A stretch of DNA of 63,927 bases, the filler included, from Candidatus Methanoxibalbensis ujae (GTDB taxonomy: Archaea; Halobacteriota; Syntropharchaeia; Alkanophagales; Methanospirareceae), in NCBI GenBank assembly GCA_026134085.1. It is 4 parts of 4 records of this genome, joined end to end, with 100 filler letters (N's around TTAATTAATTAA, not from the genome) between each part and the next. Parts side by side here need not be neighbours in the genome. Positions count along the whole stretch, not along the records: positions 20,374 to 40,212 come from JAOQIN010000034.1; 3 more parts are not named here. One strand, written 5' to 3'. Under the pieces are notes generated by a model. The model ran no database searches. It was given only the letters and a program-made list of their open reading frames with translations, and was not told the origin of the DNA. Positions 20,417 through 40,212 of this stretch are shown one piece after another. Position 1 is the stretch's first letter, and each line of letters begins with the position of its first letter. Both the position numbers and the translations under genes were made by a program.

Positions 20417-20449
20417 TTAAAGATTTAGGTATGTTTTAGGTTTTTAACG

Positions 20450-21019: not shown

Positions 21020-21041
21020 ATTAGTAGGAGGTGAGTGATAT

Positions 21042-21350: not shown

Positions 21351-21356
21351 TGAGAA

Positions 21357-21644: not shown

Positions 21645-21655
21645 GGTGATGTGAA

Positions 21656-22479: not shown

Positions 22480-22499
22480 TCCTCCCTCATATTTTTTTC
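22467..22499 (+). terminator. hairpin plus T-tract
   Basis: GAGGGAGGA-GTAA-TCCTCCCTC followed by ATATTTTTTT. Confidence 0.45.
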
Positions 22500-22530
22500 A
22501 ATTGTAATATTGAGAGGAGGTGAGAGAGAT

Positions 22531-23574: not shown

Positions 23575-23608
23575 TTAAAAATGTGATTAAAAAGGAGGTG
23601 ATGTCAAA

Positions 23609-24790
23609 GTGGATTATCACAAAATAAAGTTAAGAATGCTCGGACTGACTGAGGAGGAGTTTCAGATATTGCCGAGATTTGAACGAGTTGAGAGATTGAA
23701 TCGTCTGATGTCAGACCTCGCGGAGACTGAAGTAAGTATAAATGATGAAATAAGGAGGATAGAACGCGAATTAAGGGAAAAGAGAAGAGCCTATGAGAGA
23801 ATAATATCTGCAAGAGCAAGACTGAGAGCAAGACTGAGACATGTAAGGCGATTGAGGATAAGATTTGATATAATATATGCAGAATACAGAAGAGCACTGG
23901 GAAGAGTTGGCTCATACACAAGACTGCTGAACATAGCAATAAGAAGAGGATGGAGGGAGAGAGAAGAAAGATATAGAGAGTTACTGTTGAGGGCAAGAGA
24001 AGAATTACAAAGAATATCAGAACGATTAATTGATGTATCAGCAAGGATAAGAGCACATCCGCCTGTTGAAGAAATTGAAAGACGAATGAGGTCATGGGAG
24101 AGTGTTCTATCAAGAATAAGAGATGAGATTGAAAGAGAAACGAATGAGTTGGAATTAATGAGATCAAGAATAACAATTATAAGAGGAGTTACTGGTGACA
24201 TATTGAAGGAGATTGAGATACCTGTAACAATACTTCACAGATATACCACATTTGAAATAACAATACATGCAGGAATACAGTATGAGTCAGCGAAGAGAGG
24301 CAGTGATATAGATGTGGACATATTTGTAACATTTAGACTGAGGACATTAATTCCTCAGCATAGGGAGATGGACATTGACACATTTATAAGAGATATATCT
24401 GATATACTGACGAATAGTTCATGTCGTTTAATCAGTCTTTGTCATAATATGACTTATTTCGTTCTGCCGATTGAATCAGATATAAGATGTTCAATTATTG
24501 ATGTTGAGGTGCAAAGAGATGAAGTAAAAGATGTCACATTGAGGTATGTTGAAAAAGAAATGATGGACATATCAAGAGTATTGGAGGAGGAGTTAAGAGA
24601 TGAAATGAATTTGGTTGTGCTCCAGGTAAGATACTGGAGATGTAATACTATGGGGGAGGAGAAATCAAGGAACACTTATGCTGAGATAAATATGCTGAGA
24701 TGTATGGAGCAGAATTCTGATATAATTCTTGATGAGGTAAAGGAGAAGGTGAAGAGAGATGAACTGGCAATATTGAGTGAGGAGGTGTAA
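23609..24790 (+). CDS. Arg/Glu-rich coiled-coil protein with C-terminal alpha/beta domain
   Basis: GGAGGTGA RBS. The N-terminal ~190 aa are heptad-like and R/E-rich. Confidence 0.75.
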   Translation: MDYHKIKLRMLGLTEEEFQILPRFERVERLNRLMSDLAETEVSINDEIRRIERELREKRRAYERIISARARLRARLRHVRRLRIRFDIIYAEYRRALGRVGSYTRLLNIAIRRGWREREERYRELLLRAREELQRISERLIDVSARIRAHPPVEEIERRMRSWESVLSRIRDEIERETNELELMRSRITIIRGVTGDILKEIEIPVTILHRYTTFEITIHAGIQYESAKRGSDIDVDIFVTFRLRTLIPQHREMDIDTFIRDISDILTNSSCRLISLCHNMTYFVLPIESDIRCSIIDVEVQRDEVKDVTLRYVEKEMMDISRVLEEELRDEMNLVVLQVRYWRCNTMGEEKSRNTYAEINMLRCMEQNSDIILDEVKEKVKRDELAILSEEV

Positions 24791-24794
24791 GAGA

Positions 24795-25283
24795 ATGAGT
24801 AAGAGAATAAATGAGTATGACATCAAAGTGGATTTGGATATAAGCAAATGTGAAGGTGATGTGGTGAAAACAGCTGAAGAAATATGCAGGAGGATGTATT
24901 TCATTGAGATATATACTCCAGTCAGATTTGGTGATATTAAGGTATATGAGACAAAAAGGGGATTCCACTTATATATTGATCTGAAGGAACCTGCTTATTT
25001 GAAGAAGAATAAAGCATTTATAGTCATCCTTCAGTTATTGCTCATGTCTGACTGGAAGAGAGAAGTGTTTAACCTCTCAAGAGTTATGAGTATGTTCTTT
25101 TTGAATGTGGAATATGAGAACTGGAATATACTCTTTTACTGTAAGAGAGACACCAAAGGAAATTACTCAATAGAAAGGAGGACTTATCTCTCAATTATGT
25201 TTGAGAAGATATTACAGAATTACGAGAAAATAGGTGAGACAATTTTTGATCAAAATGAGAAGGAGGTGATAATAGACAAATGA
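24795..25283 (+). CDS. small AEP-superfamily (primase-like) protein
   Basis: DxD (VDLD), ETKRGFHLYI (motif II-like) and a later D (MSDW). GGAGGTG RBS before ATG 24795. Confidence 0.5.
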   Translation: MSKRINEYDIKVDLDISKCEGDVVKTAEEICRRMYFIEIYTPVRFGDIKVYETKRGFHLYIDLKEPAYLKKNKAFIVILQLLLMSDWKREVFNLSRVMSMFFLNVEYENWNILFYCKRDTKGNYSIERRTYLSIMFEKILQNYEKIGETIFDQNEKEVIIDK

Positions 25284-26041
25284 ATTATGAGATAGAGAGA
25301 GGAGATAACTTTGTGCTGATAAAGGGAGATTTCTTTGAGATAATGGATGAGTTAAGAGATAATCTAAGAGGGAAGGTGGGAGCAGTTATAACTGATCCGC
25401 CTTATGGAAGAGCACAATACTCTAATAAGTTCAATAAGTATTTAATACCTCTATCAGATGATAAGAGGAGGAAGTTTGTGGAGTTTGTAAGTGATGTTTT
25501 GATGAGTAGAAGTTATGCTTTCGTGTGCACAAACTGTTTTGAGTATGCCAAATATGTTATTGATTTTGAAAGGAGAGGTTTTGAACTCTATGGAGATGTG
25601 GTAATAGTATATGGGCAAGGTGCTCCTAAGAAATATAGGTTAAGGGATTCTCATGAACATTTACTGATTTTCACGAGAGATATAAGGAAGGATGTGGACA
25701 TAAACTCATTTAAAAATGTCTATCATACAATAAGAGCAAGAGGAATAAACAGATGTCATCCTGTTGAATTCAAAAATGCTCCATATGAGAAAATAGGGGT
25801 CACAGTTAAACCTCTTATGCTTCTCAGGAAAATAGTGAGGACATTCACTCGGCAGAATGAACTGATAGTAGATATGTTTGCTGGGAGTGCTTCAATCGGA
25901 GAGAGTGCATTATTGGAAGGAAGACGATATTTGGGAGTAGAGATAAGAGATTATGTGTTTGAGTTTGCACTTGAGCGATTGAGGAAGGTGGAACGAGATA
26001 TAAAAGAGCAGAGGGTTATTTTTTATAATTATAAAAAATAA
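25280..26041 (+). CDS. N4-C/N6-A DNA methyltransferase (beta class)
   Basis: ITDPPY precedes TVKP and VDMFAGSAS...EGRRYLGVEI. Confidence 0.9.
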   Translation: MNYEIERGDNFVLIKGDFFEIMDELRDNLRGKVGAVITDPPYGRAQYSNKFNKYLIPLSDDKRRKFVEFVSDVLMSRSYAFVCTNCFEYAKYVIDFERRGFELYGDVVIVYGQGAPKKYRLRDSHEHLLIFTRDIRKDVDINSFKNVYHTIRARGINRCHPVEFKNAPYEKIGVTVKPLMLLRKIVRTFTRQNELIVDMFAGSASIGESALLEGRRYLGVEIRDYVFEFALERLRKVERDIKEQRVIFYNYKK

Positions 26042-26345
26042 GAATTTTTGAAAAGCGGAACAAAAATCACGGACATGTGTATATACACATGTCTGCGGAA
26101 GTTGTTCCGTTTTTCAATTTTTCTTATTTTGTATAATCATAAAAAAGCGGAATTTTTGAAAAACGGAACAAAAAGCACGGGAATGTGTATATACACATGT
26201 CTGCGGAAGTTGTTCCGTTTTTCAATTTTTCTTTGTTTTTATGATTATAAAAAAACGGAAATCTTTAAAAGCGGAACAAAAATCACGGACATGTGTATAT
26301 ACACATGTCTGCGGAAGTTGTTCCGTTTTTAAAAATTATAAAAAA
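26019..26345. repeat. three 108-bp palindromic repeats built from 54-bp arms in alternating orientation
   Basis: Core (GAC)ATGTGTATATACACAT(GTC) centred at 26082/3, 26190/1 and 26298/9, alternating with TTTTATAATTATAAAA-type palindromes. Confidence 0.95.
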
Positions 26346-26378
26346 TAAGGAAAAATAAAAAGATAGGGGGGAGTATGC

Positions 26379-26660
26379 TTACTCCTTATTTATGCTCTCC
26401 CTCATCTCCTTAGAAGAGCTCTCTGTTGACTTGATTGATACCTCTGCAATGTATGAAGATGGCTGTTCAAAGATAAATCGTTCCTTTGACTCAGAGAAGA
26501 GGGAGGATATGACTCCTGCTGTGATACCTGATATTAATAGGAGTATGTTTTTTGCGTATTCTGCCTGAGCAGGTGCTGTCAATACTGCGATAAGTGAGCA
26601 TACTGTTATAATTGAGAGGAGGGAGAGCATGACATATGCAGCAGCAGTCTGTGCCTTCAT
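26379..26660 (-). CDS. viral small membrane protein (2 TM)
   Basis: Two hydrophobic segments, GGAGGTGA RBS. Confidence 0.7.
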   Translation of the reverse strand: MKAQTAAAYVMLSLLSIITVCSLIAVLTAPAQAEYAKNILLLISGITAGVISSLFSESKERFIFEQPSSYIAEVSIKSTESSSKEMRESINKE

Positions 26661-26664
26661 TATA

Positions 26665-26847
26665 TCACCTCCCTTTCACTCTTCCTTTTGGTATATTATT
26701 GTTTTTCCTCATATATAAGAATGTCGGGATAATTACTCCCAAAATGGAGAATGCGAGGAAGTGATAAAAAGAGAATCGTGTAGAGAGGAGGAGTATTATA
26801 AGGATTGTGTGATTGAGTATAATTATGTTCTTCATGTCTCTGAGCAT
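26665..26847 (-). CDS. viral small membrane protein
   Basis: Hydrophobic. The frame stays open upstream to an RBS near 26970, so the start may be earlier and non-ATG. Confidence 0.55.
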   Translation of the reverse strand: MLRDMKNIIILNHTILIILLLSTRFSFYHFLAFSILGVIIPTFLYMRKNNNIPKGRVKGR

Positions 26848-26975
26848 TGAGTGAATTGAAATGATGTAATAGAGTGTGGTATCACTCTGATATGGAGTGC
26901 TCTCTGGAGGTGGTTTATCGCTTCTGTCGTCTGCCTCATTATAAGTGTTGTGCGCGATGAGTATATCACCTCCTT

Positions 26976-27461
26976 TTAGTCAATATAAGGAATTAATCCC
27001 GCTCTTCGTCTTCTATATCGTGGAGTGTATTGAGGAGTGTATCGTGGAGTGTATCGTGGAGTATATCTCAGAGAATAAGAGCATCTTACGAGCATTGATT
27101 TGAGCATTGATATTATGGTAGAAATCTCATCACATAAGTCATATCTGTTGATCTCACATAATGTGCGTTGAGTATCTAATGCATGGTTTATAAGTTCTCT
27201 TATTGCGCTTTCACATAGATATTGAGAATCTGGTATTGTTGTCCTTTCAGGTGCTGGCAGTGGAGGTAGTTCCTCACTCAGTTCTTCTCCATATCCTTCC
27301 TCGTCAATGTAAGTAAGCTCCTCTTCACCTTCTTCTTCTTCTCTGTATTCAGGAATTTCTTCAGCTATTTCCTCAGGGATTTCTTCAGGTCTTTCCTCCG
27401 AAAGAAGTGAAGATAAGATTGCTCTTGTCATACTGTTGACTAATGCGTCCTCATTCATCAT
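26976..27461 (-). CDS. acidic protein with Cys-flanked helical hairpin and (RYTP)n basic tail
   Basis: EEIPEE repeats, LCES...DLCDEI...VRC, and RYTPRYTPRYTPQYTPRYRRRR. Confidence 0.75.
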   Translation of the reverse strand: MMNEDALVNSMTRAILSSLLSEERPEEIPEEIAEEIPEYREEEEGEEELTYIDEEGYGEELSEELPPLPAPERTTIPDSQYLCESAIRELINHALDTQRTLCEINRYDLCDEISTIISMLKSMLVRCSYSLRYTPRYTPRYTPQYTPRYRRRRAGLIPYID

Positions 27462-27464
27462 ACA

Positions 27465-27776
27465 TCACCTCCTCCTTCTTTTGTGTGATTTATTGGGTTT
27501 GTATAAATATAAATATTTTCCTTTGAGTGTGAAGGTAATACGATGAACAATCTCAATGGATAAATCAAGATATAATGAGAGAATGGAGTTGTCGGCAGAT
27601 GATATTGAGTGAGTATGCTTTGATAGATAGTGGGATAAGAGGGATATAAGGGATAATATTTCAGCATCTTTCATCCTTCTGGGATTTATGTCACCCTTGC
27701 TCTTTATTGAGAGGATTATATTGTTCTCGCTATCATGAGGGATTGAGGAGGATTTCCATATTTTTGGCTGTATCAT
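27465..27776 (-). CDS. viral hypothetical protein
   Basis: GGAGGTGA RBS, fits the operon. Confidence 0.6.
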   Translation of the reverse strand: MIQPKIWKSSSIPHDSENNIILSIKSKGDINPRRMKDAEILSLISLLSHYLSKHTHSISSADNSILSLYLDLSIEIVHRITFTLKGKYLYLYKPNKSHKRRRR

Positions 27777-27794
27777 TTGAATGCGGTCACCTCC

Positions 27795-28466
27795 TTATGA
27801 CATATACCATCTTATATATTCATCCGCAAACTGAGGAGGTATTGTCTCAAGTGTTTCTGGTATTAACTCTTCAGGGAATGTGCTTGATTCAATAAGGGAT
27901 ACTCTGAAACATCTCTCCCTGAATTCATTGCCCAATACTTCAACCTTTTCAGCATATCTCTCTGCTTCTTCTGAAAAGGTTATATATGCTGATTCATCAC
28001 CTCTCTCCCTGGCGATTAAAGCTTTCTTCATTGTAATTAAGTGCTTCTTATAATTTGCACTTATCTCAGAAATCATCCTTTTGCATATGTGAGTGAGAGG
28101 TCTTAACTTCTCATAATATATGGCTGCTTTATCTCTACTTTCAACACATATAACGCCAATGCCATCTATCTGATGAAACTGGTATGAGTAAATGAGGTCA
28201 ATTAATGATGCAAAAGGATTAACAATATGTGTGTGCCATAATGCATAATGAAGGTCAGGCTCATACTCCACATGTTCAAGATTTACTCTTGTTGCTTCTC
28301 CCTCTTCAAATGATATGTATAAAATATCTCCAGTTGAGGGGTCTATTGCACATATCCAGCAGTGCTGTGCACTTGATAATATTGAACGAATATATAAACC
28401 GAATGTTGTAAGTCTTTCTGTTACGCATATCTCTTTTAATGAGGTGTATGCATACTGCTTTGACAT
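27795..28466 (-). CDS. JAB/MPN-like domain protein (paralog 1)
   Basis: ALWHTHIVNPFASLID (HxH-x6-S-x2-D), DGIGVI, YYE. Confidence 0.6.
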   Translation of the reverse strand: MSKQYAYTSLKEICVTERLTTFGLYIRSILSSAQHCWICAIDPSTGDILYISFEEGEATRVNLEHVEYEPDLHYALWHTHIVNPFASLIDLIYSYQFHQIDGIGVICVESRDKAAIYYEKLRPLTHICKRMISEISANYKKHLITMKKALIARERGDESAYITFSEEAERYAEKVEVLGNEFRERCFRVSLIESSTFPEELIPETLETIPPQFADEYIRWYMS

Positions 28467-28467
28467 A

Positions 28468-29157
28468 TCAGTATATCACCTCCTCTCTCATTATCTTTAT
28501 AAGTGTTCTCCTTAATAAATGAGATGGGAAAGAGGCAGTCTCCTCAAATGCCTTATATATACATCCTTCCGCATGAGTAAATAATTTGTTCTTATATTCA
28601 AATAATAATTTGGACATCTCAGTTTTTAACTTATCAGCTTCATCATATCTCCCTTGCTGTATGAGTGTATCTATTTCATCCTTTAATCTCAATATGTTGA
28701 GCATTTCTTTTCTCATTAACTGGGAGATTTTTATACATTTCGGGAAGATTTCATAATATTCTGCTTTTACTCCTTCATTTGAAAGATATATAACACCAAT
28801 ACCATCAAGATTAAAAATTGCCTTCTCAAGGAGGAACGCCTTATCAATTGAGGATATACTGTCTTCAAACATAATGGATTCAGAATCATTGTGAATGTGA
28901 CCATAGATGTGAGTATGCCATAACGCTTTAATTCCATAATCCATAAAGAAGGAATCAGGTATTTCAACATAGTCTATTGTGCCTCTTATAATTTTGAACT
29001 CTGTGATAAAGTCATCAATTAAACGATATGCGAAACCAATTTCTCTTTCTTCTATATATGACTGAAAGTATATTCCCAATACTGTAACTCCAAGTCTTGT
29101 GGTTAAATCATATAATGTTCTATATGCAATATCAACAGACATCATTATCACCTTCAT
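28468..29157 (-). CDS. JAB/MPN-like domain protein (paralog 2)
   Basis: EREIG...ALWHTH...ISSID, DGIGVI, YYE. Confidence 0.6.
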   Translation of the reverse strand: MKVIMMSVDIAYRTLYDLTTRLGVTVLGIYFQSYIEEREIGFAYRLIDDFITEFKIIRGTIDYVEIPDSFFMDYGIKALWHTHIYGHIHNDSESIMFEDSISSIDKAFLLEKAIFNLDGIGVIYLSNEGVKAEYYEIFPKCIKISQLMRKEMLNILRLKDEIDTLIQQGRYDEADKLKTEMSKLLFEYKNKLFTHAEGCIYKAFEETASFPSHLLRRTLIKIMREEVIY

Positions 29158-29163
29158 TTCTTA

Positions 29164-29934
29164 TCATATCTCACTATGTATTACAGGACGGCATTGCTCA
29201 GATGCTCTATACCTCAACACAATCTTCATACATTGGCGAGATGCAGTCCTCAGTTTGTCTATGTAAGTTGTTGTCAACGATGATAGTCTTCTCATATGCT
29301 CATCCAATCTTTCAGAATATCTTGAAGCGAGTTCAATAATCCCTTCTTCTCTCGCTATTCGTATGTGTGCTCTCAATGATTTAATGTGATCAGCAATATC
29401 ACAGAGTTCATCATTAAGTTCCTTTAACTCCTTAATGATAGTTTCACATCTGACTTTTGTCTCATCAATGATTACACTTCTTTTTGGTCTGTATTCATAA
29501 TATTGAGCAACAATTGTCTCTTCTGTTACAGGAAATGATTGAGGAGAAATTATTGCGATACCATCTAAACCAAACATAACTCTCTCCAGAGCATACATTA
29601 GAGAGATGGTGGACATTCTCCATACATGAGGGTCTATTATAATCAGAACTTTCGGTCCTGGTGCATCATACGCTTCATGAGGAATATAAAGAGTTATCCT
29701 TTCACCAAAACGAGCATAATCACTTGCAATTGGTGTCGCATAAGTGGGAGTTGCTCTGTATAAATGAGCACTTTTAATGCTTGATGCCTGATGAAAACGC
29801 CATATCGCATAAAACGGTCTATATGATATGTCATCAAAATGAGTCAGATAAAAGTCCCATGCATACTCATCAATCTGTCTTATAAAATCCCTGCAGAATC
29901 TCTTTAACGCTACATCGCCAATCTCCTTACTCAT
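29164..29934 (-). CDS. degenerate JAB-like paralog 3
   Basis: LIIIDP replaces WHTH. Retains LDGIAII, YYE and the Cys-flanked hairpin. Confidence 0.55.
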   Translation of the reverse strand: MSKEIGDVALKRFCRDFIRQIDEYAWDFYLTHFDDISYRPFYAIWRFHQASSIKSAHLYRATPTYATPIASDYARFGERITLYIPHEAYDAPGPKVLIIIDPHVWRMSTISLMYALERVMFGLDGIAIISPQSFPVTEETIVAQYYEYRPKRSVIIDETKVRCETIIKELKELNDELCDIADHIKSLRAHIRIAREEGIIELASRYSERLDEHMRRLSSLTTTYIDKLRTASRQCMKIVLRYRASEQCRPVIHSEI

Positions 29935-29949
29935 TCATAATTCAACCTC

Positions 29950-30744
29950 CTATATTCTCTGTAATGTCATCCCCTCTATTCTCCACTCCTCTCTACATTG
30001 ATATCCTGCCCTATACCTCAGCACGACCTTCATACATTCACGAGACGCAGTCCTCAATCTGTTTATATAAACTGTTGTCAGCGATGATAGTCTTCTCATT
30101 AACGCATCCCTCATCGCTCTGAAATGTTCAGCAATTTCAATATCACCTTCCTCTATTGAGACACTCTCCTCTCTACTATATACTGCTATCGCATCAAGTA
30201 TATCACATAACTCAGTTTTAAGTGCTTCAAGCTCTTCAATGAATGATTCACATCTCACTGTAAATCCATTTACTCTTACAGTTTTTGTTGGACTGTATTC
30301 GTAATACTGTGCGATTATTGTGTCTTCTGTTACAGGATAAGATTGAGGAGCAATTATCCCTATTCCGTCTAAACCTAAACTGACTCTCTCTAGAGCATAC
30401 ATCAGAGAGATTGTGGGCATAGTGCGTGTTCGTGGATCAATTATTATTAAAACTTTGCTCCCTGGAAGTTCAAAATATTCTTGCGGTATATGTAGAGTTA
30501 TCCTCTCACCGAGTCGTGCATAATCACTTACAAAATCAGTTACATCACCATCCTCCACAATATATAAGTGAGCACTCTTAATGTCCATTTCAGCATGAAA
30601 CTGCCATATTGCATAAAAAGGCATAAATAACACAGTATCAGTATGCTGTTGATAGAATTCCTCATATTGATGACGAAATGCGATCTCTGTTATTAAGTTA
30701 TTACAGAATCTCTCCATAGCTATATGTCCGATCTCTTTACTCAT
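29950..30744 (-). CDS. degenerate JAB-like paralog 4 (close paralog of 29164-29934)
   Basis: Shares MSKEIG, PFYAIW, IKSAHLY, SDYAR, TISLMYALERV and MRRLSSLTT with paralog 3. Confidence 0.55.
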   Translation of the reverse strand: MSKEIGHIAMERFCNNLITEIAFRHQYEEFYQQHTDTVLFMPFYAIWQFHAEMDIKSAHLYIVEDGDVTDFVSDYARLGERITLHIPQEYFELPGSKVLIIIDPRTRTMPTISLMYALERVSLGLDGIGIIAPQSYPVTEDTIIAQYYEYSPTKTVRVNGFTVRCESFIEELEALKTELCDILDAIAVYSREESVSIEEGDIEIAEHFRAMRDALMRRLSSLTTVYINRLRTASRECMKVVLRYRAGYQCREEWRIEGMTLQRI

Positions 30745-30760
30745 TCATAAAATCACCTCT

Positions 30761-31900
30761 TTATGTGCGTTCAACCACTTTTAACTCACTCTTATCTGTC
30801 ATCAATGATATATTATCAGGTTTACTTCCTGCCTTCTCATCACCTCCCTCTTTTATCTTATATTCCATCTTCAGTATATGAGATAATCCAAACGCATTAA
30901 ATAGAGACTTCAATGCAGATATGACAAATGACTGATTCTTCTCCTGCCTTTTTATTGAGTCCTTACTCATCCTTATGTATTGCTCTCTGCTTAACTGTAA
31001 TACTGATAAGACCTTGTCAACAAACTCATTCACAGAGTAATCATACCACATCCACATTAACGCAGTATGTGGTCTTGTTCCTCTGTGTTCCGCTTTCACC
31101 TTTATTGAGCCTGTGTTGATGTAACATGGTAAGTCTGTAACAACAGTCGGAAGTCCTATATATTCCGATTCATATACTGGCATATTTACTCCGTCTCCGT
31201 GAGATGCTGATATTAGATATTTGGAGGATGCATATATTGAGTATAACTCATTGTGATGGAGTGTAAACTCCTGGTAAAAATCAATATTGACCTTTCCTCT
31301 TGCTCTCTTTAAAACACTCGGTAAAATTGACGGTCTCCGTGTGCTTATTACACATATACTTATTTGAGAGTCAATGCTTTTGGTTATCTCATTAATGAGA
31401 GGAGATAAGACTGATATTCCCTTTCTGTCAAGTGGGTCATATGCTCCCAGCATAATGATGTCATATCTGAATACTCCATTTGATATGTTCAAGTCATGAA
31501 TTGCTCTATATCTTGTCAATTCAGGAGATAATGCTCTTGGCACTATACCAGAAATTGATGCTCCCAGTTCATCTGACCATTGTTTTAAGACATTCTCTGA
31601 GAATGGAGATGCGACCCATATTACATCATAATTAAAGTCAGTGTTCTTGATGTAAATATCCCTTACACGACGAGTTGGTATGCAGAAGTCATCAAACCAC
31701 AGTAATTGAGCTCTTGTCCTCTTCTCAAGGAAGGCTGATGATGAATCCGTTAATATGTTAAACTTGTCATTCTCATAGTGATTCGCGAGTGAAATTTCTG
31801 CGTTTGTTATTGATGTTAAAAGAGAGTATGTGTGCTTTGATGCATAATGGATTGAATGCTCTTCTGGAGTCTTATATGGGAATATGTTTATTCCACTCAT
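30761..31900 (-). CDS. glycosyltransferase, GT-B/GT4-like
   Basis: DRKG and SHGDGVNMPVYESEYIGLPTVVTD (GT4 ExFG...EA-like motif). Confidence 0.75.
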   Translation of the reverse strand: MSGINIFPYKTPEEHSIHYASKHTYSLLTSITNAEISLANHYENDKFNILTDSSSAFLEKRTRAQLLWFDDFCIPTRRVRDIYIKNTDFNYDVIWVASPFSENVLKQWSDELGASISGIVPRALSPELTRYRAIHDLNISNGVFRYDIIMLGAYDPLDRKGISVLSPLINEITKSIDSQISICVISTRRPSILPSVLKRARGKVNIDFYQEFTLHHNELYSIYASSKYLISASHGDGVNMPVYESEYIGLPTVVTDLPCYINTGSIKVKAEHRGTRPHTALMWMWYDYSVNEFVDKVLSVLQLSREQYIRMSKDSIKRQEKNQSFVISALKSLFNAFGLSHILKMEYKIKEGGDEKAGSKPDNISLMTDKSELKVVERT

Positions 31901-31917
31901 CTGTGAAGTGCACCTCC

Positions 31918-32550
31918 TTATGCAGTCACTTTAAACTTGTATTCTGCAGTTATTGTGTCATATTGCTCCAGTGTTGTGTCTGATATTCTGTCTCTGGCTA
32001 TCATAAAATCATGATCACCAGTGCCATGTCTTGATAGAACTGTAAATCCCACTTCCCTCACTGTTATAGGGTCAGTATGCTTGTTTTCCGCAGATTTCGT
32101 TGCAGTGAAGTATGCTGTATTTCCGTCTATTATAACCTGTGAGTATGTGCCTGCGTAATAATAGAGTTGTCCAGATGATGTCCCATGTGGTATATGATTC
32201 TCAAAACCATAGTCAGATGCTTCAACACCTTTGAATCCTGAACCGAAGCATATACCATATTGGTGTCTTCCTTCTTCAGTATGCCAGTATGCATTGAGAA
32301 ATCTACTGTTATCTGCATCAACAGTTCTATTAGCCCCTCCCCAATCCTTTATGCAGCATGAATCGCGAGCTGGATAATCTTTACCCATCTGCTTGAAATG
32401 AGCAAGCATCGCTATGATGAATGACCTTGATTTACCACTGTAAATTATCTCTGTGTCACCATTCCTCCTTCTCACTATCACTCTTAAATCAGCACCTATC
32501 ATGTCCTTATTTCCATCCTTCCATATCCTCTTATTAATATTATCTCTCAT
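31918..32550 (-). CDS. putative virion structural protein (beta-rich paralog A)
   Basis: YGICFGSG...SDYGFENHIPHGTSSGQLYY...ITVREVG...MIARD. Confidence 0.65.
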   Translation of the reverse strand: MRDNINKRIWKDGNKDMIGADLRVIVRRRNGDTEIIYSGKSRSFIIAMLAHFKQMGKDYPARDSCCIKDWGGANRTVDADNSRFLNAYWHTEEGRHQYGICFGSGFKGVEASDYGFENHIPHGTSSGQLYYYAGTYSQVIIDGNTAYFTATKSAENKHTDPITVREVGFTVLSRHGTGDHDFMIARDRISDTTLEQYDTITAEYKFKVTA

Positions 32551-32582
32551 GTGTGTTCAATCACCTCCCTCATTCACATATT

Positions 32583-33191
32583 CTATACTTCTATCCAGAA
32601 TAAAACCTCCACTTCTATTGTGCGACCTGCCTGTATCGTCAGAGGAGCTGTTAATACATCTCTCAATATCATTACTGTGTAATCCGTGTCATCACTGTAT
32701 CCATATTTTACAGCATATATTCCGACTTCATTTGCAGTTATATCTGATGTGGTTCTGTTTTCAATTATCCTCTTAACAGGCCACTCAACTTTCATCGGAG
32801 ATACTATGAAGTCATCAAATTTATCCTTTTCTCCTACAATATGACGACCATACCACAGTTTTCCAGATTCCTCACCATGTTCAATTATTGACTCAAGCTT
32901 ATAGTCTGTCACTGAAACTGGAGTCGTTCCTGTCCCCAATACAATACCTCTTAACTCCTCTTCTCCATCCCACCACCATTCAAGGTATGGATGATCGCAA
33001 CGAGTATCTGGAGCATCTATCTCTGTCCCATCTATTGTCTTCAGTGTATCATGTCCTGTCTCAGTGTTGAACTGTGATACTAATGACGCTCTCATCATCC
33101 TCAGAAAATTGTCCACTAAGGAGTTCAATGGTTCATCTCTTATACAATGTCCTCTCTCATATATCCGTAATCTCCCCTTCACATCACTCAC
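32583..33191 (-). CDS. putative virion structural protein (beta-rich paralog B)
   Basis: GIVLGTGTTPVSVTDYKLESIIEHG...ITANEVG...MILRD. Confidence 0.65.
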   Translation of the reverse strand: MSDVKGRLRIYERGHCIRDEPLNSLVDNFLRMMRASLVSQFNTETGHDTLKTIDGTEIDAPDTRCDHPYLEWWWDGEEELRGIVLGTGTTPVSVTDYKLESIIEHGEESGKLWYGRHIVGEKDKFDDFIVSPMKVEWPVKRIIENRTTSDITANEVGIYAVKYGYSDDTDYTVMILRDVLTAPLTIQAGRTIEVEVLFWIEV

Positions 33192-34347
33192 CTCCTGTTT
33201 CTATTTCAGATTCATCTCTTATATATCCTTCACCATATATGTGGAATCCTACCTTATATGATGGGAGTTCCTCCTCCATCAAAACACATTCAGACATACT
33301 CAAACTCATATATGGCAATTCCACCTCTCTCTTTATATCAGCTTCCGTTTTAACCTTTATCTCATCAAATATCTCATGCTTATCTTTAAATCCTGAAATA
33401 CTCGCTCCATCTCTCAACTTAACCTTCATATCCACATAACCATGAACTATCTCAACATTTACACTCTCATCACTTACATTATCAACACATGTTGAGTATT
33501 CTCCCAACACATCAAGTTTAATCTCCGACATAACTTCATCATAAACAGGATGCGTATATGATAACCTGCACCAGTCCGATATATGTCCTTCTCCATATAT
33601 ATGGAATCCTACCTTATATGATGGGAGTTCCTCCTCCAATAATAGAGTTTCATACATACTCAAACTCATATATGGTAACTCAAGCTCCTTCTCACATTCA
33701 TGCACTGTTCTTATTCTTATCTCATCAAATATCTCATGCTTATCCTTTAATCCTGAAAGACTCGCTCCATCTCTCAAATACTCCTCCTGATATATATGAC
33801 CATGAACAATATACCTGTATGAGTATTCATCATCAATATATGATGTTCCTCTCATTTTTATCAATATCTCAACACTTGATGTCGTTGTATCTTTAATCTT
33901 ATCTATTATACCAATTGACTGTGGAGCAACATACTCATATGATGTTGTATCCTTAACTTTATCAATAATACTTATATGTTGTGCCGATATATACTGCATA
34001 ACTAACTCATGCTTTACTCTATCAGTGCTCTCAATAGATTTTGACTCAACAGTTATAAATGATAAAGCGTCATCCACCTTATTTATGCTCTCAATTGAGT
34101 GAGATTCAACAGTCCTCATTGTGATGTCTTCATCAATATCTTCCTCACTTTTTACACTTCCCCATGCGATTAACTTTGTTTTATCTTTCAATGATTCTGA
34201 TATGACAATAGACCTGTCAATAGCTCTTGCTGCATGTGCCAATATAAATGCGAAACCACCATATACTGATGCTATCTCATTCATCAGTCCATATATTGAT
34301 GAATATCCTTCCAGAAACTCTATCGTGGCTGGCTCATCAAATATCAC
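33184..34347 (-). CDS. putative structural/fibre protein with internal repeats
   Basis: A ~63-aa unit is duplicated (DNA 33227-33417 and 33587-33777), plus four ~20-aa S-I-x-x-D-K-V repeats. Confidence 0.7.
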   Translation of the reverse strand: MIFDEPATIEFLEGYSSIYGLMNEIASVYGGFAFILAHAARAIDRSIVISESLKDKTKLIAWGSVKSEEDIDEDITMRTVESHSIESINKVDDALSFITVESKSIESTDRVKHELVMQYISAQHISIIDKVKDTTSYEYVAPQSIGIIDKIKDTTTSSVEILIKMRGTSYIDDEYSYRYIVHGHIYQEEYLRDGASLSGLKDKHEIFDEIRIRTVHECEKELELPYMSLSMYETLLLEEELPSYKVGFHIYGEGHISDWCRLSYTHPVYDEVMSEIKLDVLGEYSTCVDNVSDESVNVEIVHGYVDMKVKLRDGASISGFKDKHEIFDEIKVKTEADIKREVELPYMSLSMSECVLMEEELPSYKVGFHIYGEGYIRDESEIETGGE

Positions 34348-34372
34348 TTACTTAATCACCTCCCTTTTATTC

Positions 34373-34759
34373 TTATTCCACTATCATCTCCACTTTATCC
34401 TTCACACCATCTCCATATATAATCCTTTCATTTCTCACAGTCTCAATTATGACAATATCCCTCATCAGATTAAGTGATATTGCAGACATATTCCTCTTCA
34501 CGATATTATAACTCTTATCAAATAATCTCGTCCATCTCTTGACCTTATACCATATTGTTGAACCTCTCGTCGTCTCTATTACTCTAATTGAAGGTGAACC
34601 TCTTAACGATGATCCCTTAAACCCAACTGTCATACCAACAGGAGGTGGCTCTGGTCTTGCTTCTATTACAGGCATCGTCAATAGAGGTATCTCAATAGGA
34701 GGTATCGTCATCCTGCTTACATATACTATCTCCTTCTCCTCATCTCCATTATCACTCAT
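34373..34759 (-). CDS. viral hypothetical protein
   Basis: GAGGTGA RBS, Pro-rich N-terminal part. Confidence 0.7.
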   Translation of the reverse strand: MSDNGDEEKEIVYVSRMTIPPIEIPLLTMPVIEARPEPPPVGMTVGFKGSSLRGSPSIRVIETTRGSTIWYKVKRWTRLFDKSYNIVKRNMSAISLNLMRDIVIIETVRNERIIYGDGVKDKVEMIVE

Positions 34760-34773
34760 TTAATATCACCTCT

Positions 34774-36024
34774 TTATGCTATCTCAAAGACAGCTTCATC
34801 ATTTATTGATTCCTCATCATGAATGTATGCATTCTCCACAGTTTCCAACTCCACAGATACTCCAATACTCTGCTCAGTCTCATATTGAGGAGATGTTATT
34901 GAATGTATGACACTCAATCCTCTTATATCACTTTCACCTTCTATCCTCGCTGGCAACATAACTGATAACATAGAGTTATCTGTGAGCTCATTTAATATTA
35001 AGACTTTAATTCCACTTTCAATCTTGAGCATTCCTTCATCTCTGACACCACTCACAATATCCTGCTTAGGTTTAAACAGTCTAAATTCTGAAGTGGTAGC
35101 TGGGAATGACTCCAACCGTCTTGGAATGTTCCTTATCTGAGTGAATGAAGGTGCTTCTCCGACACTCATCTGAGGTAATCCTAATGGCATTAAGAATGAT
35201 AACGCTTTTGTCTTAGGAGTTTCAATTATCCTGTCAATTATTTCAGCAACAGCATAACTGACTATCGGCAAGGCAATACATCCTCCCATTATCCCCAACA
35301 GTTTAGTGATGTCAAATCCATTTGACATCACATCTGGCAGTCTCTTTAATAATGATGCTGTCGCAGGTATGGTGACTGCTGCTATAAACATATTCTTAAA
35401 CTTATGTCTCAAATCCTCAAATAACTGAGTTATTTGCACATTAAACTGAGATATAAAGTCCTCAGCTATACTACATAATGCGTTCCACATTCCTTCAAAT
35501 ACTGATGCGAGCCATGTGAATATTGATGATAGTGCTCCTATTAACCAGTTTAATCCATTAACAATAGATGTATATATCCACTCACCGAATGAGTATATAG
35601 CCTCACCTATAACTGATAACGCAGAACCTATCCACTGTAATCCTCCCCATAACCACTCACCGAATCCGAGAAATGCATTCCACAACCACTCACCGAATCC
35701 TGCAATTGCCTTACCAATTTCACACAGACCATTCCACAACCACTCACCGACTGCCGACAATCCCTTATACATCCACTCAAAGGCTGAATAAACCCAAGAG
35801 CCAAATGTCTCCAATGCTGAAGCGATTGCTGATATTGCATTTCCCAGATACTCACCGAGAGATGATAATCCCTTATAAATCCATTCAAATGCACTGACTA
35901 AGAAATCTCCGAGTGCTGTGAGACCATCTAATATCGCTGAAAAAGCTTCATCTATCCATGACCCCAATGTGTCAAATGCTCCCTGTAATGCTTCAAATAT
36001 CGCTTCAAATATGTCCTCAAACAT
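34774..36024 (-). CDS. Trp-repeat amphipathic helical protein (tape-measure-like pattern) with TM segments
   Basis: Repeated GEWLW/GSWVY/FEWIY units at about 11- and 18-residue spacing. Confidence 0.7.
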   Translation of the reverse strand: MFEDIFEAIFEALQGAFDTLGSWIDEAFSAILDGLTALGDFLVSAFEWIYKGLSSLGEYLGNAISAIASALETFGSWVYSAFEWMYKGLSAVGEWLWNGLCEIGKAIAGFGEWLWNAFLGFGEWLWGGLQWIGSALSVIGEAIYSFGEWIYTSIVNGLNWLIGALSSIFTWLASVFEGMWNALCSIAEDFISQFNVQITQLFEDLRHKFKNMFIAAVTIPATASLLKRLPDVMSNGFDITKLLGIMGGCIALPIVSYAVAEIIDRIIETPKTKALSFLMPLGLPQMSVGEAPSFTQIRNIPRRLESFPATTSEFRLFKPKQDIVSGVRDEGMLKIESGIKVLILNELTDNSMLSVMLPARIEGESDIRGLSVIHSITSPQYETEQSIGVSVELETVENAYIHDEESINDEAVFEIA

Positions 36025-36047
36025 TTCTCCCTTCTCTTATATTATTA

Positions 36048-36254
36048 TCAGACGATCTGTATCATTATTTTAACTCCTCCATTCTCACACTTCACTGTTG
36101 TGGCTTTCTTGAGGTCATCTGGCGAATCCCTAACGAGTATATCTCTCAAATCTGACTCTGGTATGAATATCTCAAGTATATTTCCATTTACATTAACTCT
36201 TGCATTTGGCGTCAGTCCTTTTATTGATGAGAGTAATGGCATTATCTCAATCAC
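36048..36254 (-). CDS. viral hypothetical protein
   Basis: Short ORF with GGAGGTGA RBS. Confidence 0.65.
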   Translation of the reverse strand: MIEIMPLLSSIKGLTPNARVNVNGNILEIFIPESDLRDILVRDSPDDLKKATTVKCENGGVKIMIQIV

Positions 36255-36346
36255 CTCCTTTTTATCATCCTATTAACCACTATCATACATAAAAAGGATA
36301 TCCCACCCATCCCTCCTCCTCCCTTCATCAACCTTCCACTACTTCT

Positions 36347-36574
36347 TCATGACAGCATACACCACAGCATCGCTGAAAATGTGAGCATCTTAACTGGATC
36401 ATCATACCACATCACCCACAGTCTCTGTAAAAATGACTGGACATATGAGAATGCCACCTTCAAATGTGATAACACTGATGCTATCACTGAATATATCTCT
36501 GTCTTAAATGTCTCAATTGCCACTCCTATTGACTGCGCAATTCCTGTCACATCCTCTAAGTCCATTGAAAACAT
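36347..36574 (-). CDS. small amphipathic/membrane protein
   Basis: Helical and hydrophobic, in the structural operon. Confidence 0.65.
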   Translation of the reverse strand: MFSMDLEDVTGIAQSIGVAIETFKTEIYSVIASVLSHLKVAFSYVQSFLQRLWVMWYDDPVKMLTFSAMLWCMLS

Positions 36575-36585
36575 TTTCCCTCACA

Positions 36586-37206
36586 TCACGGTGGATTCAC
36601 ATATACATAGTATGTTGAAATAAGTCTCGCTCCATCTCCCACTGTAGTGGCTGCTGGAGTATCCCTCAACATCATCACATAATACTGCGAACCGCCAACA
36701 GTCACCATTATAAACCATCCCACTTCCCTGACTGTTATTGACCCTCCACTGTCATTATCAAACTTCCTCTCAAGCGTTATCTTTGCTGGTGCTCCTGAAT
36801 CTTCAGATGACTTAATCTCCGTCTCATGATATACGAGTTCACCGCTTCCCGTTCCATGATTAATCTTTGACCTCAAATTATAATCAGTCCATGTTGTTCC
36901 AGTTCCATTAGTGCCCACTATGAGACCATACTTATCCTCATTTGCAGGAGCATTTGCCCCATACTTATTGGCATCATTCTGCTCATCCCATGACACTGTT
37001 CTTGATGTTCCATCCACATCCACAACATCAAACTGTGGTTTACCTGCTATGTCATTTGCGAGAGCTGTGTTGAGCAATGAATATCCATTCTTCACAAATG
37101 AATGACACTTGTGCCACTCATCACTTATCAGTTTATCTTCTATCAGCACTCTCATCCGCAGCCATATATCAAATGATGCACCTCCAGACTGTCTTATTTT
37201 CTTCAT
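36586..37206 (-). CDS. putative virion structural protein (beta-rich paralog C)
   Basis: YGLIVGTNGT...TDYNLRSKINHGTGSGELVY...ITVREVG...MMLRD. Confidence 0.65.
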   Translation of the reverse strand: MKKIRQSGGASFDIWLRMRVLIEDKLISDEWHKCHSFVKNGYSLLNTALANDIAGKPQFDVVDVDGTSRTVSWDEQNDANKYGANAPANEDKYGLIVGTNGTGTTWTDYNLRSKINHGTGSGELVYHETEIKSSEDSGAPAKITLERKFDNDSGGSITVREVGWFIMVTVGGSQYYVMMLRDTPAATTVGDGARLISTYYVYVNPP

Positions 37207-37245
37207 TTCCTCTTCTCATTCACCTCCTTACCTTTTCTTGTAAGA

Positions 37246-37281
37246 AATGAGAAGGTGCGCTCTTATAGCGCACCTCTCATT
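37246..37281 (-). terminator. stem-loop downstream of the 67-aa gene
   Basis: AATGAG(A)AGGTGCGCT-CTTAT-AGCGCACCTCTCATT. Confidence 0.4.
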
Positions 37282-37319
37282 CATCCATTCTCAATACTGA
37301 GACCACTTACCTCCCACTA

Positions 37320-37523
37320 TCAGAATATGCCCCTGAACCATGCTGTCATACCTCTGAACATCCTTGAACCATATCTCCAGACAAGCAGAGTAAGTCCACC
37401 CAGGACGACCACTGTCGCTATGATTGACGCATTATCAGCAATCGCATCTGCTATGTAGTAAAGGACATCCTGCAATCCCTGCAGCACTCTATTCAGCACA
37501 TCAACGAGCTCATATCCCGCCAT
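37320..37523 (-). CDS. small single-TM protein, candidate envelope/coat protein
   Basis: Acidic amphipathic N-terminus, TM helix and basic C-terminus. GGAGGTG RBS and TTTATATA box upstream. Confidence 0.7.
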   Translation of the reverse strand: MAGYELVDVLNRVLQGLQDVLYYIADAIADNASIIATVVVLGGLTLLVWRYGSRMFRGMTAWFRGIF

Positions 37524-37610
37524 AACACCACCTCCTATCTCATACTATCATTCACCTTATATAAATACCTTATCCTCTCATGCTCCCACATATCTTTATC
37601 CTCTTATAAC

Positions 37611-38201
37611 TTATTGCTTCATCATTTCCCTCTTCTCTATTATCTCCCTTATCTCATCCCTCACTTTATCCTTATCCACAACCACATCATCCTCAGATGT
37701 TATCGCTTCCTCCTCCCTCGCATATATTCCTTCAATCCTCCTCCTCTTCCTTTCCTCCTTCTCCCTTATCATAGATGCAACACTCTCCACCAACCAGTTC
37801 ATACTCTCACCATGCGATGACTTCTTCACTCTTCTCACAACTCCTATACATGCTCTCTTAACCGATATATACCTCTTCACCACATTTATTGCCCATATCA
37901 CATCATTCAACTCAATATCACTATTCACATTATCAAGAGCATCCACATCCACTTCCACATTTTCAGTCTTTCTTACTTCTATCAACCTCCTCATAATATC
38001 CTGAGGACTCATCCTCCAACTGTTCATCCCATCTCCACTGCTCAATGATGCTATCACATCATCTATTATAATTGATGCTTCTATCCACTCATTTATTATC
38101 TTCACCGCTTTCACCACATCCTTCACTCCAACCCTCAAATCACTTCTTCCATTATACCTCCTCACACTCCCATTATCCTCTCTTCCTCCTCCAACATTCA
38201 A
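37611..38201 (-). CDS. viral helical hypothetical protein with internal duplication
   Basis: KDVVKAVKIINEWI compared with NDVIWAINVVKRYI. Confidence 0.7.
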   Translation of the reverse strand: MNVGGGREDNGSVRRYNGRSDLRVGVKDVVKAVKIINEWIEASIIIDDVIASLSSGDGMNSWRMSPQDIMRRLIEVRKTENVEVDVDALDNVNSDIELNDVIWAINVVKRYISVKRACIGVVRRVKKSSHGESMNWLVESVASMIREKEERKRRRIEGIYAREEEAITSEDDVVVDKDKVRDEIREIIEKREMMKQ

Positions 38202-38222
38202 CTTGCCATCATCCTCCTTACT

Positions 38223-38621
38223 TTATCTGCTTTTCTTCTCAATCCTCAAAACCACATAATCCCTTTCACGAACACATACAATTGAAAGACCACTTTCCAC
38301 CTTCTCTTTTACACGCTTCATAACCAGACTACCTATGACATTAATTAAGTCATCCACATTAAACAGAATATAGCATATCCTTCCTCCATCAGACCACTCC
38401 AGATCAACACTCTTCAACCCCAACTTCCTTAACGCTTCAACTGATGCAGTTACTCCTTCCACAACCTTCCTCTGCGTTCTCTCATACTTCTTTAAACCAT
38501 AAATCCCTCTTACTTTATTATCCCCTCTATCATTCACAACATCACATACTCTATCATTAACATCATTATCCATTATTAAAATCCCTCCTACCTCCTCCTG
38601 TTCTATTATCACATAAATCAA
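38223..38621 (-). CDS. viral hypothetical protein
   Basis: ORF in operon. The true start may be the internal MDND after the GGAGG RBS. Confidence 0.6.
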   Translation of the reverse strand: MIYVIIEQEEVGGILIMDNDVNDRVCDVVNDRGDNKVRGIYGLKKYERTQRKVVEGVTASVEALRKLGLKSVDLEWSDGGRICYILFNVDDLINVIGSLVMKRVKEKVESGLSIVCVRERDYVVLRIEKKSR

Positions 38622-38709
38622 TTATATCCCCAAATTAATAAAATATGTGGAGGAGGCTCTTCTCCCCTCCTCCATCATCAGTCATCCATACTCACTTATC
38701 CACCGAAAT

Positions 38710-39141
38710 CTATGCACTCGTTCCTCTCTCCTCAGGTCTTGTCGTCTCTGACGGAGTTCTGCCAAGTCCGAACTCATCCATTATTGCTCTCAGGACATCC
38801 TCATTAAGCTCAGGTGACTTATTCATGAACTCTGTGAGAACATCCTCTGGGTCAACTTCATGCTTCACAAGACAGACACGATGCAGTTTCTGTGCAAATG
38901 CATAATACGGTGCTCTGAACATTGGCGACACATATGTCTCTTCTGCGTTCAGTATTCTCCTGACTCTCATCCTGACACGATGATAAAGTCCACCACCAGC
39001 AGCGAATTCCATCGTCTGCATCTTTGCCACAGTCTGTGCAAGTTCATCAGGTATTCCCTGTGCCTTAGCTATCTTATAGACCTTCTGCTCATATCTCATA
39101 AGTGTTGTTCCACTCCACACCTTCTTTCGAGACGCCATCAC
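38710..39141 (-). CDS. putative SIRV2-type major capsid protein (Adnaviria)
   Basis: 143 aa with a basic N-terminus. VRRIL...RAPYYAFAQKLHR and LNEDVLRAI align by eye with rudiviral MCP VSAVL...RAIYQGFGLKVAR and ANPQVLDAV (recalled sequence). Has its own TATA-like promoter, RBS and downstream hairpin (38648-38674). Confidence 0.72.
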   Translation of the reverse strand: MMASRKKVWSGTTLMRYEQKVYKIAKAQGIPDELAQTVAKMQTMEFAAGGGLYHRVRMRVRRILNAEETYVSPMFRAPYYAFAQKLHRVCLVKHEVDPEDVLTEFMNKSPELNEDVLRAIMDEFGLGRTPSETTRPEERGTSA

Positions 39142-39226
39142 GCATCACCTCCTTCACCTTCTCTCTATTACATCATATCTCTATTACATAAATATATTTA
39201 TACTATCCCATATTATCAATCACCAG

Positions 39227-39670
39227 ATGAAGCACATAATCATCCTCACGGAAGGCGTAACACGACACTCCATACCCGCAGAACTGATCTCATCCATATC
39301 CTCCGACCTTAATGTGACTGCGATGCGTATAATAACCCTCGTCCGCTTCTCCGACAACATATCCTCTTATGAGTTATCCTCTATAACTGACTACTCTCTA
39401 ATCACAGAGACAATCAGAAGATTCATTATGGATAGAAGACCACTCAGTCCAATAGAAGCAACTCGTGCTGCTGCTGAATACATCAGAACATATATAGAGG
39501 ACAACTTTTACTCTATTACATCAACATTATCATCTCAGATATTCAGTCGTTATTATGAGTCAAAACTGAGCACTGATACTGAGATATCCGTTTTTGATAT
39601 AAACCAATTCCTCCTCTCCAGAGCAACATCTGATATTCAGACTATAATAATACGAGAAACATCACGATGA
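39227..39670 (+). CDS. viral hypothetical protein (Ser/Thr/Ile-rich), divergent from MCP
   Basis: 147-aa ORF sharing the AT-rich divergent promoter region 39150-39225. Confidence 0.6.
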   Translation: MKHIIILTEGVTRHSIPAELISSISSDLNVTAMRIITLVRFSDNISSYELSSITDYSLITETIRRFIMDRRPLSPIEATRAAAEYIRTYIEDNFYSITSTLSSQIFSRYYESKLSTDTEISVFDINQFLLSRATSDIQTIIIRETSR

Positions 39671-39688
39671 TCCCCCTCACCTCCCCCC

Positions 39689-39862
39689 TCACTTCTTCTT
39701 TTTATTCTCATCTACCACCTCATCTACCACCTCATCCATAATCACATCTACAACCTCATCTACAACCACATCCATAATCACATCTACCACCTCATCCATA
39801 ATCTCATCCATAATCTCATCTACAACCTCATCCACAATCTCATCTACAACCACATTCCCCAT
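39689..39862 (-). CDS. 57-aa acidic tetrapeptide-repeat ORF / 12-bp tandem repeat
   Basis: Translates as MGNVVVDEIVDEVVDEIMDEIMDEVVDVIMDVVVDEVVDVIMDEVVDEVVDENKKKK, with GGGGGGAG before the ATG. Confidence 0.5.
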   Translation of the reverse strand: MGNVVVDEIVDEVVDEIMDEIMDEVVDVIMDVVVDEVVDVIMDEVVDEVVDENKKKK

Positions 39863-40045
39863 ACTCCCCCCTTATATTTTTATAATTATAAAAAATAAGA
39901 AATTTTGAAAAACGGAACAAAAGTCACGGGAATGTGTATATACACATGTCCGTGATTTTACTTCCGTTTTTCAATTTTTCTTTACTTTTATAATTATAAA
40001 AATTAAGAAAAAATTAAAAACGGAACAAAACCCGCATACATAAAC
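39860..40045. repeat. fourth copy (plus a degenerate half) of the 108-bp palindromic repeat
   Basis: ATGTGTATATACACAT at 39932-39947, flanked 54 bp either side by TTTTATAATTATAAAA centres at 39885/6 and 39993/4. Confidence 0.95.
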
Positions 40046-40212
40046 ATCATCAGGAGTATTCCTCGCTTTTTCTCCTCTCTTTCACCTCCTCATCCACCTC
40101 ACCATCCACCTCCCCTTTCACCTCAACACTCACCTCCTACATAGGTGTCATGATAATGGCAGTTGGAATTTTCATGTTGAGAAGCAGGAAGCACAAATTC
40201 TCATGGAGAAAG

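Follow-up and report, generated by a model that had tools for sequence, protein, structure and literature searches.

An AFV1-like adnaviral major capsid protein, lone on its contig, in a virus with a likely ANME-1 host

The capsid gene and its contig

The window, the whole stretch of 63,927 nucleotides that was analysed, consists of contigs joined by N-linkers. The gene studied here lies on contig C28 (20374-40212, 19,839 nt, GC 0.379), about 1 kb downstream of the point where the contig is cut, and encodes a protein with the fold of Adnaviria major capsid proteins (MCPs). The features of the contig are as follows.

20374-20386: fold-back artefact
20387-40136: viral part of the contig, about 19.75 kb, GC 0.379 against about 0.46 in the host
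22158-22192, plus strand: protospacer; in run X1 the match is flanked on both sides by the CRISPR repeat of the host genome
22510-26041, plus strand: replication block (MCM-like, coiled-coil, primase-like, DNA methyltransferase)
22510-23574, plus strand: MCM-like P-loop protein with C-terminal HTH
within 22510-26041, plus strand: coiled-coil protein of the replication block
24777-25283, plus strand: primase-like small protein, with weak database support
25280-26041, plus strand: DNA methyltransferase
26020-26340: three tandem 108-bp (9 x 12) imperfect palindromes between convergent gene blocks
30761-31900, minus strand: glycosyltransferase (group 1)
34774-36024, minus strand: 416-aa protein with Trp repeats and a single predicted membrane helix; AFV7 ORF542 / AFV2 ORF554 family (phrog_37712), E 7e-15
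36586-37206, minus strand: 206-aa protein, candidate adhesin; weak match to the C-terminus of PRD1 spike P5, E 0.0084
37320-37523, minus strand: 67-aa protein predicted to have one membrane helix, its gene equipped with a TATA-like element and a hairpin of its own; AFV7 ORF71 family (phrog_9875), E 1.3e-4; candidate envelope protein
37611-38201, minus strand: conserved all-helical protein of at most 196 aa with an internal repeat, without profile similarity to the MCP
38223-38573, minus strand: conserved 116-aa protein directly 3' of the MCP; its family profile matches AFV7 ORF178, E 1.5e-4
38649-38670, minus strand: terminator-like hairpin 3' of the MCP gene, from terminator scan and folding
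38710-39138, minus strand: Adnaviria-fold MCP, AFV1-like, 142 aa from ATG (143 aa from GTG at 39141)
39188-39202, minus strand: AT-rich TATA-like element 5' of the MCP gene; palindromic look-alike that could also serve the divergent ORF
39679-39870: array of repeats with a 12-bp period, 0.55 kb 5' of the MCP gene
40137-40212: host DNA joined by chimera

The MCP frame occupies 38710-39141 on the minus strand, where a preliminary description had placed it, and opens with GTG to give 143 aa. Its second codon is an ATG 6 nt after the GGAGGTGA ribosome site, and relatives of the protein start at this same position; the protein is therefore more likely 142 aa long (38710-39138). The basic N-terminal arm reported earlier was confirmed, residues 1-25 containing seven K/R and one D/E. 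The letters of the MCP motif quoted with it are present, but V..IL and R are separated by 12 residues instead of 3; R76-A-P-Y-Y80 is the same in 9/9 family members. As for the promoter that the gene was said to possess, a TATA-like element does lie at about 39202-39188 and is identical in the related locus L005, but it is a look-alike only, and a sigma-70 scan gave 3 sites versus 2.8 in shuffles, which is chance level. The downstream hairpin (38670-38649) fared better: two overlapping terminator-like sites were found versus 0.2 in shuffles, with a folding z of only -1.79 for the 93-nt region (9/200 shuffles equally good). It is genuine but modest, and its role as a terminator is predicted.

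Identity of the capsid protein

The structure model of the MCP, built from the single sequence (pLDDT 73.9, pTM 0.50), contains helices at residues 11-27, 32-47, 52-66, 73-92, 98-108 and 114-123. When it was compared with 48,161 chains by an exhaustive structural aligner, adnaviral MCPs took the first seven places (Z from 10.9 down to 7.1, with 71-77 residues aligned at rmsd 2.0-2.9), namely 3f2e (Z 10.9, rmsd 2.9, 75 aligned), 6wq0 (Z 10.8, rmsd 2.4, 77 aligned), 3fbl (Z 10.3, rmsd 2.3, 71 aligned) and four more at Z 9.9, 9.5, 9.4 and 7.1, followed by the first unrelated chain at Z 6.9. The best of these values falls below the caution level of the aligner for helical bundles (Z about 13). Foldseek with the same model returned nothing at E <= 0.001, adnaviral MCPs being first in rank (best E 0.015 and 0.027), and the tristromaviral chain 6v7b aligned at Z 5.2.

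The single sequence searched against solved structures had AFV1 ORF132 as its best match (E 1.7e-6). Pfam PF21660 scored 22.1 bits on it, below the cut-off of 27, and was found in 6/9 members of the MCP family. Eight further MCP clusters were found at 31-36% identity, and a 9-member profile matched AFV1 ORF132 (E 5.8e-9) and AFV1 ORF140 (E 5e-5) but no SIRV2 chain at E <= 1; SIRV2 ORF134, scored directly, gave 1.5 bits. The reach of the family as found is a lower bound. No relative was found in a first genome scan or in IMG/VR scans, the ESM Atlas gave nothing usable for the MCP, 0/78 other genomes of the class matched the protein, and tblastn of the MCP against a phage collection did not recover even AFV1.

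We regard it as virtually certain that the ORF encodes an adnaviral MCP. The helix-bundle assignment of the preliminary description held up, and the structural comparison that it had suggested as a check recovered SIRV2/SSRV1-type bundles at Z 10.8-10.9. By structural Z, SIRV/SSRV1 and AFV1 chains tie. The N-terminal arm of the model is a helix-turn-helix (H11-27, H32-47), the form that the accessible part of PMC5517147 gives for AFV1, the SIRV2 arm being one kinked helix. With an AFV1-like sequence and an AFV1-type two-helix arm, the earlier label 'SIRV2-type' is thus true at the fold level only.

Copy number of the MCP

A broader, 15-member profile that reaches AFV1 ORF132 (1e-16), ORF140 (6e-13), AFV7 ORF165 (1e-6) and ORF204 (2e-5), and SIRV2 (0.012), detected no second MCP among the 383 six-frame segments of C28, the next hit being a low-complexity ORF at E 1.8. 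Profile-profile comparison (hhalign) of the MCP with three neighbours gave probabilities of at most 0.2%. A model of the 196-aa ORF, too poor (pLDDT 59) to weigh on either side, had no adnaviral MCP in its 50 best matches (best Z 5.5). The assembled DNA holds a single MCP copy. The earlier observation that no second MCP adjoins the first is upheld for the assembled contig, and the profile search of neighbouring ORFs proposed with it found no diverged one. The 9-member profile detected the tandem MCP pair of L044; since it misses SIRV2, and the broad one reaches it at E 0.012, a paralog more distant than SIRV2 (e.g. tristromavirus-like) could be missed. At least 296 nt beyond 40136 lie outside the assembled C28 at its right end.

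Eleven related loci (L006, L007 and L036-L044, all partial contigs, five of them built into the 15-member profile) carry one MCP in seven cases, two in one (L044, tandem genes at 767-1587) and none in three, of which L036 begins behind the gene and L038 and L041 are short. In the MCP tree (20 rows, none dropped), one L044 copy groups with the lone MCP of L042 (98/95) and not with its tandem neighbour. Because only one MCP gene was found on the contig, the coat is likely made from one protein, and a single copy acting as a homodimer is probable.

Neighbouring genes

Relatives of the 116-aa protein match phrog_12956 (E 0.002-0.012), which the window protein itself does not, and AFV7 ORF178 is annotated 'structural protein' and lies directly behind the two MCP genes of AFV7. 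Three families (ORF178, ORF71 and ORF542) are common to C28 and the enveloped betalipothrixvirus AFV7; none of the three was detectable in AFV1. With at least 50 sequence clusters marked by the 67-aa protein, the lineage appears sizeable; in the ESM Atlas the best cluster for this protein (0.91) has 14 labelled members, most of them Taleaviricota, a lead only. The 206-aa protein is one of three paralogs, the others being encoded at 32583-33191 and 31918-32550.

Gene order from the MCP to the Trp-repeat protein is conserved in L006, where the products in between are, in sequence, one of 96-116 aa, one of about 190 aa, the 67-aa membrane protein, the 206-aa protein and one of 70-75 aa; in L007 the first four genes are conserved in this order, and several other loci are rearranged. 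The primase-like gene stands directly before the MCP gene in L039 (2128-2520) and L040 (13-438). Its product was named by a motif that we take to be that of primases, and the L039 copy matches a phrog primase at E 0.051. Three of the 32 viral proteins match SIRV2 at E <= 0.05 (the glycosyltransferase at 0.0015, others at 0.012 and 0.022), and a Pfam/PHROG-type profile search of the 32 found no integrase family. Kinship with the globulovirus PSV was rejected, no match being better than E 0.028.

Four paralogs lie at 27795-30744 (minus strand), two with and two without an HxH...S..D motif that we take to be JAB/MPN metalloprotease-like, with no Pfam or PHROG support; one of the four is absent in L036 and in some contigs of X2-X4. 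An acidic 387-aa protein (33184-34347, minus strand) has a 360-bp internal duplication, and a form shorter by one unit occurs in all four runs holding the virus.

A twelve-base step

The period-12 ratio of C28 (3.6) is the highest of the 55 contigs longer than 10 kb, the next being 1.9, and is still raised with four arrays masked; the ratio is 1.6 in AFV1, 1.0 in SIRV2 and 1.0 in the part of AFV7 compared. Much of the signal consists of four-codon repeats inside ORFs. The 12-bp arrays at 39689-39862 (minus strand) and 40068-40136 read as four-residue acidic repeats, with a form 36 nt longer in X3 and X4. The offsets between C28 and L036 are 12, 6, 60, 684, 24, -24 and 24 (6/7 multiples of 12), that between C28 and L005 is 12 (1/1), and those between L006 and L007 are -9 and +180 (1/2). 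As 12-bp indels have been described for rudi- and lipothrixviruses (available portion of PMC4390879) and one MCP dimer covers 12 bp of DNA (available portion of PMC5517147), the step speaks for adnaviral packaging but is no novelty on its own.

In addition to the three tandem 108-bp palindromes, a fourth is centred at 39940 (39877-40041) near the right end, and a partial one lies at 20450-20483. The 108-bp palindromes are candidate origins, resolution sites or two-way terminators.

Contig ends and the join to host DNA

The virus is present in four runs (X1-X4) from two studies, one of them possibly the source of the assembly; no RNA run was listed among those holding the virus. The last 77 nt of C28 derive from the host, from within a gene on C48, and the first 77 nt of C49 match inside a viral ORF of C28, but 77-nt end-to-interior overlaps are common across the assembly. 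Viral and host contigs go separate ways at 40136, each with sequence of its own, and no piece among the 32 listed from Logan bridges the point; the join is therefore a chimera and not an integration. A single-cell origin of the assembly, considered on account of the 77-nt overlaps, was dropped because the best-matching run is a metagenome.

At the left, contigs of X2 and X3 reach 14-16 nt beyond 20387 and open there with a G-run, as AFV1 does at both its ends. The idea of a covalently closed hairpin at 20374-20416 was discarded, the end being different in other runs. At the right, one X1 contig extends 296 nt past 40136. The genome is likely linear and non-integrated; should the X1 contig stop at the terminus, the genome would measure about 20.06 kb. 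Adnaviria have linear dsDNA of 17.6-41.5 kb with terminal inverted repeats.

Host

C28 belongs to bin G000 (1.99 Mb), the McrA of which has 3sqg as its best match (979 bits versus 740 for the next), presumably the ANME-1 enzyme. Host sequence occurs in all four runs holding the virus, and viral DNA compared with 79 genomes of the class gave only short low-complexity matches outside G000. The 129 spacers of the G000 assembly gave no match to the virus (best 10 mismatches). In X1, the G000 repeat is present on two loose ends around 22158-22192, where the viral contigs break, as expected for a shared 31-mer. This repeat was found in 1/401 genomes sampled within the phylum, G000 itself. The X1 spacer is divergent at the 5' end and is not accompanied by the CC motif that precedes the six C86 protospacers listed, and may thus come from a related strain. 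Binning is uninformative on the host, because L036, a virus 84-87% identical, was binned in a bacterial MAG. The loci L036-L044 are filed in public MAGs labelled bacteria and several archaeal groups, likely by mis-binning.

C86 (45,912 nt, ends overlapping), a second mobile element in G000, is matched by 7/129 spacers with 0-1 mismatches. In the same bin, C82 (2,335 nt) is a small circle that encodes a membrane protein, and C84 (2,033 nt), on which a ParB-like ORF was recognised by eye, resembles an insertion in C52.

Proposed virion and alternative readings

We consider it likely that the adnaviral MCP, lone on its contig, acts as a homodimer that wraps the probably linear genome of a filamentous, possibly enveloped virus of ANME-1. 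Two MCP copies would pair through the C-terminal helix bundle (residues 50-127; fold by model comparison), and by homology with AFV1 and SIRV2 each dimer would grip 12 bp of DNA with its basic helix-turn-helix arms (residues 1-47) and keep it in A-form, a state to which the 12-bp offsets and period point only indirectly. Coiling of the dimers would then give a helical filament, the co-oriented genes behind the MCP could supply its end structures, and the 67-aa and 416-aa membrane proteins, common to lipothrixviruses, could give it a lipid envelope. Judging by hydropathy and family matches at E about 1e-4, an enveloped virion is slightly favoured, at nearly even odds.

The main competitor of an enveloped filament is a naked, rigid, rudivirus-like rod, the membrane proteins serving egress or host functions. 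All solved single-MCP adnaviruses are non-enveloped (PMC12282232), SIRV/SSRV1 chains equal AFV1 chains by Z, and the envelope place of AFV7 ORF71/ORF542 is deduced from hydropathy. Against these points, the SIRV2 matches comprise a glycosyltransferase and two weak hits, and affinities with the enveloped Ungulaviridae and Lipothrixviridae show in the MCP, in three accessory families and at the left end; we hold the rod to be rather unlikely. The preliminary description had by implication tied a single MCP to the SIRV2/rudivirus type, a link that fails here, since sequence and arm are AFV1-like and the neighbouring genes belong to lipothrixvirus families; it had also been broken before, by a single MCP outside Rudiviridae in the Baiyanviruses (available portion of PMC13700489). 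A heterodimer of AFV1 kind would follow if a second MCP existed beyond the broken right end or had diverged too far, e.g. as the 196-aa helical ORF or a 147-aa divergent ORF. The missing right end, the tandem MCPs of L044 and the two MCPs that the ICTV gives to adnaviruses other than rudiviruses (PMC12282232) speak for it; but such pairs lie side by side in AFV1, AFV7 and L044, whereas the flanks here are fully assembled and not MCP-like, the X1 contig running on adds less than one MCP gene, and depth drops toward the right end (261, 133, 57) as it does toward the left (232, 88). This makes a hidden partner decidedly improbable, and we retain the homodimer.

The host, too, could be another vent archaeon, with the virus simply mis-binned with an ANME-1 genome, as the chimeric joins to host contigs, the spread of relatives over MAGs of many unrelated taxa and the lack of a matching G000 assembly spacer would allow. 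The repeat-flanked X1 match, with a repeat unique to G000 among the 401 sampled phylum genomes, and the co-occurrence of virus and host in two studies argue against this reading, which appears unlikely; an ANME-1 archaeon is the probable host. Least credible of all is an integrated provirus, or else a capsid-fold gene domesticated by the cell, an explanation of very low probability: the two 77-nt joins between C28 and host contigs would suit it, but both lie inside genes in an assembly where such overlaps are common, no listed Logan piece bridges 40136, the 32 proteins include no integrase family, and the 78 other genomes of the class that were searched have no match to the MCP.

Beyond this virus, we tentatively, and with considerable doubt, propose a family-level lineage of vent adnaviruses whose enveloped filament would be built from an AFV1-type MCP homodimer, a missing state between naked homodimeric rudiviruses and enveloped heterodimeric lipothrix-/ungulaviruses; it would include one- and two-MCP members (L044), infect a methanotroph and keep the 12-bp dimer step in its indels and repeats. 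If true, an AFV1-type single MCP beside lipothrixvirus accessory genes would uncouple MCP number from the envelope and make possible a direct test of why heterodimers arose. It would also give ANME-1, the main marine methane sink, a second, unrelated type of filamentous virus.

Comparison with known adnaviruses

The best sequence match of the MCP is AFV1 (Captovirus, Ungulaviridae; MCPs ORF132/ORF140; 5W7G, 3FBL, 3FBZ), with which the virus shares a helix-turn-helix N-arm, a G-run genome end (one end here) and a size of about 20-21 kb. Unlike AFV1, it has one MCP found versus two, almost no other common genes, MCM-like and primase-like replication genes, and a likely ANME-1 host versus Sulfolobales. 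Of the Ungulaviridae traits, the AFV1-like MCP and the G-run end were thus found, and two paralogous MCPs were not found in the assembled DNA. With the beta- and deltalipothrixviruses AFV7 and AFV2 it has in common the ORF178, ORF71 and ORF542/ORF554 families, a glycosyltransferase and 12-bp indels, but it differs in its one MCP, which matches AFV7 by broad profile only (1e-6, 2e-5), and in a genome of about 20 kb versus 32-37 kb. Lipothrixviridae accessory genes are therefore present (two families at E about 1e-4; parts of AFV7 and AFV2 compared), whereas the two MCPs are not. Tristromaviridae have two MCPs and the envelope protein VP3.

The C-terminal bundle (Z 10.8-10.9) and the single MCP within 19.75 kb resemble Rudiviridae (SIRV2 ORF134, SSRV1), from which the virus is set apart by no useful sequence match, nearly absent core genes, and another arm shape and genome end. 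In the ICTV summary, one MCP without an envelope is confined to rudiviruses, and every enveloped member uses two paralogs (PMC12282232). The literature search, outside which most subscription papers lay, found no report of a single AFV1-like MCP with lipothrixvirus accessory genes.

Several sources were available in part, and the following comparisons are limited to those parts. Chiyouvirus encodes two MCPs (PMC10541130), a SIRV2-like character is reported for Demeterviridae and Gaiaviridae (10.1101/2025.08.23.671958), and PMC7189273 gives the background on PFV2. Baiyanviruses are rudivirus-like and have a single MCP (PMC13700489), and in the single MCP they are like the virus described here; they and Ahmunviridae infect ANME-1 or Asgard archaea. 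The Ahmunviridae member Methanophagales virus PBV300 is an ANME-1 adnavirus of 41.5 kb in which the MCPs are SIRV2-like and the minor proteins those of rudiviruses (PMC9894754), and differs from C28 in size and gene list, a separation made by annotation alone. Samediviridae, a candidate family from a preprint, comprises widespread vent adnaviruses of Thermococcales (PMC12934983) and may be the lineage of the C28 virus.
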